From Bacteroidota bacterium (GTDB lineage: Bacteria; Bacteroidota; Bacteroidia; Flavobacteriales; Flavobacteriaceae): a DNA stretch of 64,000 bases. The notes beneath the pieces are model-generated. The model saw only the letters and a program-made list of their open reading frames with translations. It had not been told where the DNA came from and made no database searches. How positions within the stretch are numbered: position 1 is the first letter of the stretch; each line of letters begins with the position of its first letter. Location: assembly GCA_018267095.1 (NCBI GenBank), contig JAFDZC010000017.1, forward strand, positions 142,431-206,430, read 5' to 3'. Made by a program: the position numbers and the translations under genes. Below, piece by piece: positions 42,424 through 46,152 of the stretch.

Positions 42424-43092
42424 TCAAGTTGATGGAGAGCCGTGTTGCTCAATCATCAGCAAGTCTGGTTTGTATACATCTTTGACATCTGTATTTGGTT
42501 CAAAAGTGCTAAACTCTTTTTTTTGGGGTCGTTTAATAATTACGCCATTGCTTATATCAATAAGCGCGCGCCTCAATAGGTTTAGACCCATATCTTGCAA
42601 AGTATTTTCCCATAGTTTTTTGGCTGCTTTTTTTGGTTCAATTGAATACATGGCGGGATCAATAAAGCAAAAATCTTGATATGCAACATCTCCTCGATCT
42701 ATTCCATCATTCAACCAAAAAACAGTTCCCCCAGTAATTGGATCACGCATACGTATAGCCCACTCAATAGATGAACGACCACGGTGTCTAGGCAACAAGC
42801 TTGGATGATAACCTATCCAACCAAGCCTGCACTTATATCGAGATTTTTTACCTATGTAGTCAAATGAATGTGCAGTTATGCCTAAGTCAACATTGTCCGG
42901 TATTTTATCAGCCGAAAGCGTTCCAGAAGGTATTACTGGAATATTGAATGTGTGTGCTATTTGCGTCAAATATTTATCATCCAAAGGAGCACAAACCCCA
43001 ACAATTTCAACAAATTCAAGCTCATTGCACAGCCTAAACACTTGTTGGCCAAAATACTTTTGGCTAGATATAAAAACTTTTAATTTATTCAT
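42424..43092 (-). CDS. Formyl-THF-dependent formyltransferase/hydrolase-fold protein
   Basis: GYHPSLLPRHRG.SSIEW, GGTVFWLNDGIDRGD. Confidence 0.9.
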   Translation of the reverse strand: MNKLKVFISSQKYFGQQVFRLCNELEFVEIVGVCAPLDDKYLTQIAHTFNIPVIPSGTLSADKIPDNVDLGITAHSFDYIGKKSRYKCRLGWIGYHPSLLPRHRGRSSIEWAIRMRDPITGGTVFWLNDGIDRGDVAYQDFCFIDPAMYSIEPKKAAKKLWENTLQDMGLNLLRRALIDISNGVIIKRPQKKEFSTFEPNTDVKDVYKPDLLMIEQHGSPST

Positions 43093-44205
43093 TGCCTAAA
43101 TATTTAAAACTTTGAACCGCACGTAAATGGCCACCATAACCGCAACCGGTTATACTACCCTTTTTACCGGTCTTTTCAATACTTTGCTTACTTCTGACCT
43201 TATTAGAACCGTAAAGCATGGCCCCTGTTTGTGCCCACTTTTTCGAGTTTCTTAAATAGCCACAAAGTTGTGGGTGTGATGTATGAAAAAAAGTGTGATA
43301 CTTTCTTTGGCACCGACCGTTCCCTTCTAGGTGATATTGCATTACTTCATTTAAAAATGCAGTTCCTACACCTGCGCCTTGCCACTCTGGCATAACAACT
43401 AATCTTGTCGCCCTATATGCAGTGGCCGTAAAGAGTGGGCAAACTGCTAAATGAGCTACAAGTTCACCGTTTACAGTTGCAACAAAATATTCAGCGGCAG
43501 GTGGGTGAGGTAAATCTAAATAGTAATGCTCTTTAAAATACCTCCAATAACTTCCGTTTGTCTTCCAAATGTCGAGTTTAATAGACGGTCTTTTTTGGAC
43601 TTTTTTTTTACTTCACCGGTCCGAGTATCATATACCCAATCCGGTTGCAGCCATTCAACGACATCATAGTGGCAAGAAAGCAAAACTATTTTCTTGCCTT
43701 TTGTTCGCCTCCAAGATTTTGAAAAAGCAGCTGCGCCAATTTGAGCAATTTGCCTGTCTACTACACTGGTAAATTCATCAATCACAACTCGATCAGGTGC
43801 ATTACAAATCAGCCTAGCCAAGCCCGCCCTGTATTGTTCGCCATTCGAAAGCGACTTAAAAGGCCGTAGCCATGCGGGTACATTACCAAGCCCAACGGCA
43901 GAAAGTGAGGCGGTAACTTCATTTAAGCTCATTTGCGGGGCGATATTGTCCACGATAGGTAAAGTGTTGTCCCAATTACTATAAAGGTCGTGTATAGGCA
44001 AATCTTGCCAAATTTGAGCGCCAATTGATGTTTTGCCGGAACCAGATGGGCCAACAATCAGACCGATTTGCCAATTTTCATCTTCAATTGGTAAATCAGC
44101 TTCATGTGTCCATGTGTGACCATTATCGGCGTTAAACAATGATTTTACTTTTTGAGCTCTGAAGGTCTCAAAATTTTTGGTTGTGTGATTGACAACAATT
44201 TTCAT
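43085..44205 (-). CDS. ABC-ATPase + GNAT acyltransferase, fused by a predicted -1 shift at 43606-43600 (~373 aa)
   Basis: GPSGSGKT, LSNGE, VVIDEF, CH; the -1 frame is open from 43600 to 43085 and contains RLVVMPEWQGAGVG. Confidence 0.8.
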
Positions 44206-44333
44206 ACTGATACTACTTTTAAATCCTTAAATCCCATTTCTGATAACTTTTCAAAAACTTTTTTTTGCTCATCCTCGCTACTACACTTCACGATTACAGC
44301 ATGTTGCTCTTTGTAGGTAAAATTTTTACTCAT
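44202..44333 (-). CDS. 43-aa protein not in the ORF track (MSKNFTYKEQHAVIVKCSSEDEQKKVFEKLSEMGFKDLKVVSV)
   Basis: ATG at 44333; ATGA overlap with the ATPase start. Confidence 0.7.
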   Translation of the reverse strand: MSKNFTYKEQHAVIVKCSSEDEQKKVFEKLSEMGFKDLKVVSV

Positions 44334-44339
44334 TCGTTT

Positions 44340-44370
44340 TTTGATTGATGATTATTGATGATTAACTTTG
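44340..44370 (+). promoter_or_regulatory. Bacteroidetes housekeeping promoter, antisense to the late operon
   Basis: TTTG (44340) - 19 nt - TAACTTTG (44363). Confidence 0.6.
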
Positions 44371-44373
44371 CAC

Positions 44374-44516
44374 TTCCTACGATAATTTAAGACACAAAAA
44401 AGCCACCGAATAGAAGACTTATGTCCTCCAACTCGGTGGCTTCGTGCTATAATAAATTACCGTAGGAAAGTATTTATTTTGTTGGAGGACTTTTTTTATA
44501 CTGCCTCCACAGTATT
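44374..44516. ncRNA. Structured leader / antisense RNA candidate
   Basis: Stems 44374-89/44453-68, 44400-09/44433-42, 44423-32/44481-90, and a small hairpin at ~44499-44516. Confidence 0.5.
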
Positions 44517-46152
44517 AGAAAATTTTTCTATAAGCTAAATAATCCGCGTACATATTCAAAGATGTCGTTCCCGCAATTTTGTTAAACAAGTTGTACCAAT
44601 GCATCGCAGTGGATGTTGAAGGAATATTTGTTGTGTGGGTGGCCACTAAAGTATCGTTGATATAAAAGCCAACACTAGTCCCCGCTGAGTTTATTTCAAT
44701 TCGAAGCCGAACCCAACCACTTGCCGAAATTGCCACAGCTGAATTTGTCGTCGTACGAACAGATGTATTTATAGTTACACAACGCCAGTTTGGTGATGCG
44801 CCTAAAACTCCGCCGCCCCAAACGCCACCTTCGTCGTAAATAAAGAATATGCCATTTGTAGTTGAGTTAACATTACCTGCTGTATAAGCTCCAAATATTG
44901 CTGTAAAGCGATCTGTTGAATTTGATAAGCTTTCAATGTTAATATAAACCTCATAGCTGATAGCACCATTGCCAATATAGTATTGAGGTGCGTTGTTCGA
45001 GCCTAATCTAAACACGCCGTTACCCGTTGAAGTTGTACCCGTTGATAATAAAAGAACACCCTCCTGAATAGTTCTGTTAGGAAAAGTACCCGTTGTTCTT
45101 CCGACAGAACCTGTGCCTGATGTTACAACGACCACTCCTAGTGTAGTACCAATCCCAGAGTTATCATTTGTGCCTAAAAAATGTTCAATAAAAAAAACAC
45201 CTTTTCTACGCCATGCCCACATATCCTCTTGGGGTGTAAATCCAATCAAATTTTGTTTTAAATCTAGCGCGGCCTGTTGTAGCGTTGATACTGGCTTTTG
45301 CGTGTCAGAAGTATTATCTACATTACCCAATCCAACCTTTGCTTTTGAAAGGCTACCAATCCAAGAAGGATTATCGTATACTTCTGAAAGTCTCACATAA
45401 AAAGATTGATAGTCCGACTCTACAGCAACTATGTTTCCGATTCTCCCAAAAACAGAGGTCACAGAATCTGAGTTATCCACTTTTGACCAACCGCTCACGG
45501 CTCCTAGTGATAAAATCCAATCACCGGTAGAATAATCGATACCATCTTTTGTAAATCCTGAAGTAACAATAAAATAAACCCCAGCATTTGATACCGTTGG
45601 ATTTGGCAAAGGCAAACCATTGAAAGATACGTATGCCGAACTAACAATCGTTCCGTTGTATGTGCCTCTGAACCTAACGTTTCCGAGTATTTCATCCGGA
45701 AAGTAGGCAGTTGGTATTTTCTGGTCCGCACCTAATGGCGTAACTCCGAGAGCCGCACCAACCAAATCAGCATTAAGCTTCAAATCAAAAGCGGCCATTA
45801 AGTCAGCTTGGTTTTGTAAGTCACCTTCGATTTCTCCCCAATTCTTTGCGCCGCTAATATATTCATCGTAGTCCTGAGAGGTCATGCCGGGATGATCATC
45901 CAACCAAACTTGCCTTGCGTCGCGGCCATCAATACCCCTAAAATACTCATAATACTCTTGAATAGTTCCACCCGGGTTATCAACCTGCCAAAGATCGAAA
46001 GCATTTAACCCATCATTACCGTCTATGCCGTCTCTAAAAGCTGAAACTACAACCGGAGCTACTGGGTTTGTCAAAATGCTTACGCTGTCCGATATCGGGC
46101 AACTAACAGTTACAGTAAATGGCAACGCCGATGTAGTAATTGTTACCTGCAT
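44515..46152 (-). CDS. Tail fibre / receptor-binding protein
   Basis: GIDG repeats at the N-terminus; beta-rich Thr/Gly C-terminal domain; last gene of the tail operon. Confidence 0.7.
   Translation of the reverse strand: MQVTITTSALPFTVTVSCPISDSVSILTNPVAPVVVSAFRDGIDGNDGLNAFDLWQVDNPGGTIQEYYEYFRGIDGRDARQVWLDDHPGMTSQDYDEYISGAKNWGEIEGDLQNQADLMAAFDLKLNADLVGAALGVTPLGADQKIPTAYFPDEILGNVRFRGTYNGTIVSSAYVSFNGLPLPNPTVSNAGVYFIVTSGFTKDGIDYSTGDWILSLGAVSGWSKVDNSDSVTSVFGRIGNIVAVESDYQSFYVRLSEVYDNPSWIGSLSKAKVGLGNVDNTSDTQKPVSTLQQAALDLKQNLIGFTPQEDMWAWRRKGVFFIEHFLGTNDNSGIGTTLGVVVVTSGTGSVGRTTGTFPNRTIQEGVLLLSTGTTSTGNGVFRLGSNNAPQYYIGNGAISYEVYINIESLSNSTDRFTAIFGAYTAGNVNSTTNGIFFIYDEGGVWGGGVLGASPNWRCVTINTSVRTTTNSAVAISASGWVRLRIEINSAGTSVGFYINDTLVATHTTNIPSTSTAMHWYNLFNKIAGTTSLNMYADYLAYRKIF

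Follow-up and report, generated by a model that had tools for sequence, protein, structure and literature searches.

The intergenic spacer at positions 44334–44514 of the window (the whole 64-kb stretch of DNA analysed), which the list of open reading frames places between two minus-strand genes, is on comparative sequence evidence one copy of a strongly conserved folded RNA family that was formerly undescribed. In Mu-like Flavobacterium prophages the element probably gates the expression of swappable DNA-modification genes. The reading we favour, at a probability of about one half, is that the spacer acts as a sense-strand, cis-acting regulatory RNA module joining the late (tail) operon to the terminal DNA-modification cassette. 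By its conservation the element appears to be a new, well-defined cis-regulatory RNA family, and we infer that it would work as an attenuator or terminator gating read-through, together with antisense control.

The prophage junction and the distribution of the element

Upstream of the element on the minus strand is a 545-aa tail-fibre-like gene (44515–46152 in the ORF list) carrying a PF22237 C-terminal domain and matching tail-fibre PHROGs, and its TAA stop codon (44517–44515) directly adjoins the first hairpin of the element, HP1. Downstream lies a minus-strand cassette of four ORFs (42424–44333): a 43-aa ORF (44202–44333), a 229-aa ABC-type ATPase-like protein (43516–44205; ABC_tran match), a 102-aa ORF (43085–43393) and a 222-aa formyltransferase-like protein (42424–43092; Formyl_trans_N match). 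A single PHROG, phrog_11143 (357 residues), matches both the 229-aa ATPase-like ORF (residues 1–197) and the 102-aa ORF (266–351), which may be one split or frameshifted gene. The G+C content of the genome is 40.9%, that of element copies 30–40% and that of the window copy 35%.

The spacer sequence is single-copy in its own 3.13-Mb genome, with no second site in the prophage. A host repeat or MITE was thereby ruled out; the single further match is to the low-complexity AATCATCAATCAAAAA leader, also found before ordinary host genes. Leaders of the form AATCATCAATCAAAAA(A)CGA..ATG (window 44334–44362; loci L009, L012, L013 and L016) recur almost letter-for-letter before such genes in several genomes of the genus, and this appears to be a common A-rich translation-initiation leader of a group that does without Shine-Dalgarno sequences.

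The host prophage spans ~42.2 to 78.4 kb in window coordinates, extending past the 64-kb window, and the element sits ~2 kb from its end. It encodes a Mu-type portal (PF06074), a 320-aa MuB-like ATPase of the AAA_22/TniB-like kind and an S24 repressor, and because these match the published description of the fF4-type Mu-like phages of Bacteroidetes, in which the last ORFs are DNA-modification genes (PMC7761591), the prophage was assigned to that group. Beyond the window, the same contig (C8) carries the S24 repressor (77641–78345, plus strand), a transposase-sized 695-aa ORF with no Pfam match (75292–77379, minus strand) beside the TniB/AAA ATPase (74326–75288, minus strand), and a second DNA methylase, of the cytosine-5 type (68820–70463, minus strand). 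By gene content this is an fF4-like, Mu-like transposable prophage bounded by the repressor and, at the opposite end, by a DNA-modification gene, and the 695-aa ORF is the candidate transposase.

The family was first met through viral-contig relatives of the ATPase gene that carried the same spacer. Pattern scans and a covariance model (R1) recovered 77 distinct copies from viral contigs and genomes, and metagenome contigs supplied a further 36, bringing the family to more than 110 distinct copies; the window copy matches the model from the A-run to the promoter box (44361–44497, minus strand; 132.7 bits, E = 1.9e-18). Viral contigs with the element are mostly 30–36 kb, and the named relatives belong to Flavobacteriaceae and Chitinophagaceae. 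In samples of one genome per species, 16 of 150 other genomes from the genus had the element, as did 1 of 150 drawn from other genera of the family; a class-wide sample gave none among 147 genomes from outside the genus. A search of Rfam 15 (E <= 10) returned only four chance-level matches, to three miRNA precursor families and the Listeria sRNA rli28, at 17–27 bits against gathering scores of 45–85, so that no family threshold was reached. Searches of the region for tRNA and tmRNA were negative, deposited phage genomes gave no match to the element, and full-text literature searches found no description of the RNA family.

The position of the element is constant: it follows the stop codon of the last late gene and precedes a variable cassette. 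Both flanks are mosaic, and the element is conserved more than either neighbouring gene set. Clustering split the upstream genes into more than 20 unrelated groups, among them tail-fibre-like proteins and numerous small hydrophobic ones, with the stop codon mostly 24–37 nt before segment 2 (defined below), which is 0–12 nt before HP1. The gene ending at HP1 in many copies (e.g. L155, L236, L152 and L219) encodes a 60–120-aa hydrophobic protein and no tail fibre. At 69 loci the first downstream gene could be classified as a Dam/D12 or DPPY-motif methylase (28 loci), a ThyA-like 212-aa protein (20), the 43-aa ORF (15), a Mom-family protein (3), a cytosine-5 methylase-like protein (1) or a gene with no assigned function (2). 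Wherever the sequence could be read far enough, the ATPase gene came next after the 43-aa ORF. One Mom-family gene was recognized by Pfam (L109; PF25680, E = 3.8e-61), and that of L213 and one other by BLAST clustering. At two loci the downstream methylase seems broken: L106 has a 48-aa ORF starting like the 275-aa family, and L226 a 68-aa ORF starting MGQKR.

The initial annotation had placed the spacer in front of a mom-like operon. This was right as to the slot, since homologous loci carry a Mom-family gene, methylases or a ThyA-like enzyme in what is the mom position; it did not hold for the cassette of the window itself, in which Pfam and PHROG searches found no Mom-family match, the Pfam matches being ABC_tran and Formyl_trans_N. 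Its proposal that control is exerted without a Com-like protein agrees with the gene content, as there is no Com-like zinc-finger ORF at the locus; the 43-aa ORF encodes just one Cys and was seen with no cassette other than that of the ATPase.

Pairing and covariation in the sense RNA

Three complementarities, a hairpin loop and a promoter motif had been described in the spacer beforehand, and all five are present at the positions given. TTCCTACGATAATTTA (44374–44389) is complementary to TAAATTACCGTAGGAA (44453–44468) at 15 of 16 positions, the exception reading A·C on the plus and G·U on the minus strand. AAGCCACCGA (44400–44409) is complementary to TCGGTGGCTT (44434–44443), after which the minus strand has UUUUUU (44401–44396), and GTCCTCCAAC (44424–44433) is a perfect 10-nt complement of GTTGGAGGAC (44481–44490). 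The predicted fold of the minus-strand RNA has an energy of −62.8 kcal/mol, against −29.9 ± 3.7 kcal/mol in 200 shuffles (z = −8.9), and that of the plus-strand RNA −50.5 kcal/mol (z = −4.9 against shuffles); the complementarities are therefore more than chance.

In the sense (minus-strand) direction, the upstream stop codon is followed by HP1 (segment 1; 44498–44515), a hairpin UACUG-UGGAGG-CAGUA with GGAGG in its loop, which appears on the plus strand as TACTG-CCTCCA-CAGTA at 44499–44514. There follow an A7 run (44491–44497; U7 on the plus strand), segment 2 ('a', GUCCUCCAAC, 44481–44490), which has complements in the HP1 loop and in segment 3, an A-rich linker, and then a long interrupted hairpin, the rod (44372–44470), delimited by minimum free energy (MFE) folding and covariation. 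In the rod the 5′ arms of P1, P2 and P3 lead to segment 3, and the loop AUAA is followed by segment 4, the 3′ arms of P3 and P2, a U-rich tract and the 3′ arm of P1. P1 pairs 44470–44453 with 44389–44372 and P3 pairs 44443–44434 with 44409–44400; P4 forms the tip, with segment 3 (a′, GUUGGAGGAC, 44433–44424), the loop (44423–44420) and segment 4 (a″, GUCUUCU, 44419–44413). The U-tract after the inner P3–P4 hairpin (44396–44401) is a candidate intrinsic terminator of the tail operon, and the sole reason that a simple terminator scan missed the hairpin was that its loop limit was 8 nt. Beyond the P1 3′ arm lie a CAAAnnTA box and the A-rich, unstructured leader AAUCAUCAAUAAUCAUCAAUCAAAAAACGA with the AUG (44333–44331) of the first cassette gene (together 44331–44362). 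The AUG region is unpaired in the minus-strand MFE structure, and the hairpin ends ~38 nt before the AUG.

Covariation was assessed on a 77-row alignment fitted to the model that had been built from the family itself. An RNAalifold consensus on a MAFFT alignment gave only P3–P4, and P1 was defined from column-pair compatibility. In the long hairpin 93.7% of cells were paired, compared with 85.7% when partners were shuffled and 42–52% when they were slid. Double-change cells numbered 142, against 37 ± 5 in shuffles, none of 500 of which reached the observed value, although these shuffle counts overstate significance because related copies are not independent. Compensatory change was seen in 14 of the 28 hairpin pairs, spread over P1 and P3.

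The pairing of segment 2 with segment 3 was present in 96.5% of cells in the first set and 91.9% in the metagenome set, and the helix occurs in at least nine different 9–11-bp versions, such as CGUCCUCCA/UGGAGGACG and UGUCCUCCG/CGGAGGACA. One of its pairs, a8:a′3, is A-U in 20 rows and G-C in 11, with 13 double-change cells against 4.8 (reached in 0 of 500 shuffles, a count subject to the same overstatement), and in one copy each side of the helix lacks 1 nt, the two deletions matching. Changes in segment 2 are also answered in HP1. The three distinct GUCCCCC copies of the first set have GGGG(A) and not GGAGG in segment 1, with segment 3 remaining GGAGG, and by eye most GUCCCCC copies of the metagenome set also have a GGGG-type segment 1. 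Similarly, a GGAGGG partner was found in 4 of 8 GCCCUCC copies versus 1 of 40 GUCCUCC copies. Of 72 copies, 64 have a GGAG or GAGG motif no more than 30 nt upstream of segment 2, and in 55 it falls in the loop of a predicted hairpin; the HP1 stem is free to vary in sequence and in length (4–7 bp). An A-rich run of ~5–9 nt, sometimes broken by another base, precedes segment 2 in the family copies.

Segment 2 cannot pair with the HP1 loop and with segment 3 at once, and 2:3 is mutually exclusive with 1:2 and with 3:4; segment 3 pairs weakly with segment 4 through G·U, whereas its pairing with segment 2 is perfect Watson-Crick. Since compensatory changes occur both with the HP1 loop and with segment 3, both partners of segment 2 appear to be under selection, as expected of a switch. 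The initial annotation's description of a multi-state RNA thus gains support, because covariation backs the hairpin and the two competing CCUCC pairings. Covariation across relatives had been set beforehand as a test of that description, and it was found in the hairpin, in 2:3 and in 1:2.

The selected structure is that of the minus-strand RNA, in the same sense as the genes. This follows from an excess of G·U pairs and from the fold energies. In fixed alignment columns there were 315 sense G·U against 30 A·C (an A·C being a G·U on the other strand), the variable helices alone gave 90 G·U against 28 A·C, and two tip pairs in P4 are G·U in 72–76 of 77 rows. In 53 of 54 copies the sense RNA folded more stably than the antisense RNA, the mean energies being −52.6 and −39.5 kcal/mol, respectively. 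Topology agrees and supports the sense strand: the HP1 loop and segment 2 would make an H-type pseudoknot, its first loop short and its third A-rich, that is feasible in the sense orientation alone. The antisense RNA proposed earlier is therefore not supported as the main structured actor.

The same observations bear on whether the site acts as DNA, double- or single-stranded, in recombination, transposase binding or packaging. The long inverted repeat ~2 kb from the prophage end and the exchange of cassettes around it would suit such a site; however, the strand-asymmetric G·U bias and stems that are free in sequence yet kept in pairing point to RNA, and a single-copy element with no second site in the prophage makes this explanation highly improbable.

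Other candidate functions were considered and set aside. A small ORF inside the element was ruled out on either strand, as indels do not come in threes and the AUG in the plus-strand loop is not conserved. A riboswitch is unlikely, since the element lacks both a multi-helix junction and a conserved pocket and shows free variation in the HP1 stem and loop flanks. A read-through or frameshift pseudoknot serving the upstream gene is also unlikely, given unrelated upstream genes and the lack of any coding frame conserved downstream across the copies.

The opposing promoter motif

A Bacteroidetes sigma-A-type promoter motif, TTTG-N19-TAACTTTG, lies on the plus strand at 44340–44370 and points into the rod, with a predicted start at ~44372–44377, at the base of P1. 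TAnnTTTG, the −7 consensus of Bacteroidetes sigma-A, holds in Flavobacterium, for which no −33 element could be identified (PMC7366714), and the conserved box of the family is the exact reverse complement of TAnnTTTG. This −7 box (CAAAnnTA in the sense orientation) is intact in 69 of the 77 copies, and three of the eight exceptions are truncated elements. Its positions are conserved as C in 75, A in 77, A in 76, A in 75, T in 74 and A in 77 of the 77 copies, and the two n positions between are the most variable columns (T52/A14/G8/C3 and A55/G16/T6). The plus-strand promoter of the initial annotation is accordingly retained as a putative promoter. The −33 spacing is right in only about half of the copies, with TTG at a spacer of 18–20 in 36 of 68 and a modest peak at 19. 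Of 416 occurrences of the full motif in this genome, 120 lie no more than 150 nt ahead of an ORF on the same strand, compared with 16 of 281 for a composition-matched control.

The predicted plus-strand transcript is ~100–125 nt long, with a U-rich tract right after the hairpin (5–6 U in 8 nt) and then U5–9. It would cover 44372 onward and miss the ribosome-binding region and AUG of the downstream gene; the promoter motif itself overlies the leader of the first cassette gene.

That this plus-strand small RNA is the main product, acting in cis or trans, for instance by way of an exposed CCUCC loop, with the sense structure as its mirror image, is very doubtful. In its favour, the conserved −7 box keeps a constant distance to the base of the hairpin, 5–6 U follow the plus-strand hairpin within 8 nt and a U5–9 run follows GUUGGAGGAC, and A·C mismatches that open the tip on the plus strand would expose GUCCUCCAAC. 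Against these stand the G·U counts (315 in the sense RNA, 30 in a plus-strand RNA), a plus-strand fold that is weaker by ~13 kcal/mol in 53 of 54 copies, and the helix beside U7, which cannot form once the hairpin has folded (+17.6 kcal/mol). At that same cost, and with the hairpin forming first, a plus-strand terminator made of GUCCUCCAAC/GUUGGAGGAC and U7 was ruled out both as an equilibrium and as a co-transcriptional fold.

No TAnnTTTG was found on the sense strand between the U-tract and the AUG, where GGCUUUG covaries as a stem. A sense-strand promoter was likewise rejected on the near-match TGGCTTTG, which varies as a stem (e.g. GGCGTTG with AACGCC) and whose spacing to any TTG shifts with stem length. 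A sigma-54 −24/−12 element, judged by eye against the consensus, does not fit in its spacing.

Proposed read-through control and comparison with known systems

The inner hairpin has the makeup of an intrinsic terminator, P3–P4 being followed by UUUUUU directly after the last tail gene; across the family, 4–6 of the 8 nt that follow the 3′ arm of P2/P3 are U. In the truncated copies (L104/L239, L245 and L247) the part from HP1 to the U-tract is retained and the element breaks off just past that tract; the P1 3′ arm, the box and the cassette are missing, and segments 2 and 3 contain mismatches. Because these copies lose the cassette and decay in segments 2 and 3 but retain the remainder, they suggest that the terminator part is autonomous and that the segment 2 and 3 motifs serve the cassette. 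Two of them, L245 and L247, lie ~2 kb apart on the same strand of one genome (G015:C6:268004–270258), each preceded by a 64-aa ORF, with no P1 3′ arm or promoter box and with degenerate segments 2 and 3, and look like a duplicated, decaying junction.

A plain, strong and possibly bidirectional terminator or insulator that ends the tail operon and is conserved as a boundary for homologous cassette exchange, with no switching, would account for a hairpin flanked by A-rich and U-rich sequence with U-rich tracts following on both strands, for an element better conserved than the mosaic gene sets on either side, and for the hairpin and U-tract retained in truncated copies. It leaves unexplained segments 1 and 2, which lie outside the hairpin, their compensatory changes with two partners, the invariant weak G·U tip pairs and the selective conservation of the TAnnTTTG profile, and we regard it as unlikely.

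Under the favoured reading of a sense-strand regulatory module, the inner hairpin and U-tract would end most tail-operon transcripts, and the modification genes, for which no sense-strand promoter of their own was seen, would depend on read-through. The amount of read-through would be set by a choice made during transcription between 1:2 plus 3:4, which gives the full hairpin, and 2:3. Segment 3 would emerge before segment 4 and be captured by segment 2 unless segment 1 held segment 2; a ribosome terminating next to segment 1, which would free segment 2, is the likeliest input to this choice. The opposing promoter would either produce a ~100–125-nt hairpin antisense RNA or cause collisions with incoming polymerases, and the duplex of antisense and sense RNA could serve as a nuclease target. 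By suppressing leaky expression when late transcription is weak, it would confine modification to late lytic growth.

Several observations constrain this model. Forcing 2:3 costs +28.5 kcal/mol relative to the full hairpin, and 2:3 could therefore exist only as a co-transcriptional intermediate. It removes only the tip P4 and leaves P2/P3, beside the U-tract, free to pair; because it does not overlap P2/P3, so that P3 could form as a pseudoknot, it is not a textbook antiterminator. The U-tract is interrupted in most copies (GGCUUUGCUAUUUU), which counts against the switch reading, and the stop codon close to HP1 could be a mere reflection of a compact phage genome.

A role in RNase III-type processing or stability, in which the ~45-bp hairpin or a sense/antisense duplex would be cleaved to separate the tail and cassette mRNAs and set their half-lives, is consistent with the conserved, near-continuous duplex with its small internal loops, and an antisense partner would fit as well. 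Such processing does not explain the 1:2 and 2:3 alternatives and, although quite unlikely as the explanation of the element, is compatible with the switch and not exclusive of it.

The regulatory module could also take a specific form, which we consider unlikely: a three-state RNA switch that senses translation termination in bacteria that do not use Shine-Dalgarno sequences, with a self-terminating antisense hairpin RNA setting its threshold. A terminating ribosome would mask or base-pair with the GGAGG loop, CCUCC would then capture the hairpin tip, and the captured tip would let polymerase enter potentially harmful DNA-modification genes.

The family combines more than 110 copies, three covarying sets of pairings and no Rfam match, and it is tied to one slot, the anti-restriction DNA-modification cassette of Mu-like Flavobacterium phages. 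It may offer a tractable model of how Bacteroidetes phages time potentially toxic modification enzymes without Mu's protein regulators, and of RNA-based attenuation and antisense control in a phylum whose post-transcriptional regulation is poorly known. Because the conserved junction marks the point of cassette exchange, it should also be useful for finding new DNA-modification genes beside the element.

Among known systems, the P1 C4 and P4 CI RNAs are likewise phage RNAs in which short exposed motifs pair with repeated targets. They differ in being processed immunity RNAs that act on early operons, whereas the GGAGG/CCUCC repeats here all lie within one ~165-nt cis element before a late accessory cassette, and an Rfam search found no sequence or family similarity between them and the element. 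Like IS10 RNA-OUT (pIN-pOUT), P22 sar and hok/sok, the element has a putative opposing promoter by the 5′ end of the regulated gene and a short RNA predicted to be one long imperfect hairpin; unlike in those systems, the predicted antisense RNA misses the start codon and leader of the regulated gene. In the antisense-driven attenuation of pT181 and pIP501, a sense terminator and alternative pairings are combined with a countertranscript complementary to the leader, as is predicted here, but the setting of the element is a phage late operon junction rather than a replication-gene leader, and its link between antisense RNA and fold is hypothetical.

Closer in layout are the four-segment attenuators of trp and pyrBI, with which the element shares ordered segments, a choice between 1:2 plus 3:4 and 2:3 backed by complementarity and covariation, a 3:4 pairing in the hairpin before a U-tract, and a translated ORF that ends beside segment 1. 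Here, however, there is no short leader peptide and the ORF that would be sensed is a full-length late gene; 3:4 is only the terminator tip, and 2:3 does not directly unzip the stem beside the U-tract. The com-mom operon of Mu resembles the element in its setting: the regulated genes come last in the genome of a Mu-like transposable phage, after the tail-fibre genes; their function is DNA modification, with a true Mom-family gene at three homologous loci; and an RNA hairpin lies upstream of the gene. It differs from the present locus, where no Com-like zinc-finger ORF or separate sense promoter was seen, the start codon is not sequestered by a hairpin, the leader is unstructured and the window cassette is without a Mom-family match. 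If the three-state switch were true, it would be an RNA-only functional counterpart of the Com/C/Dam control that Mu exerts over mom.
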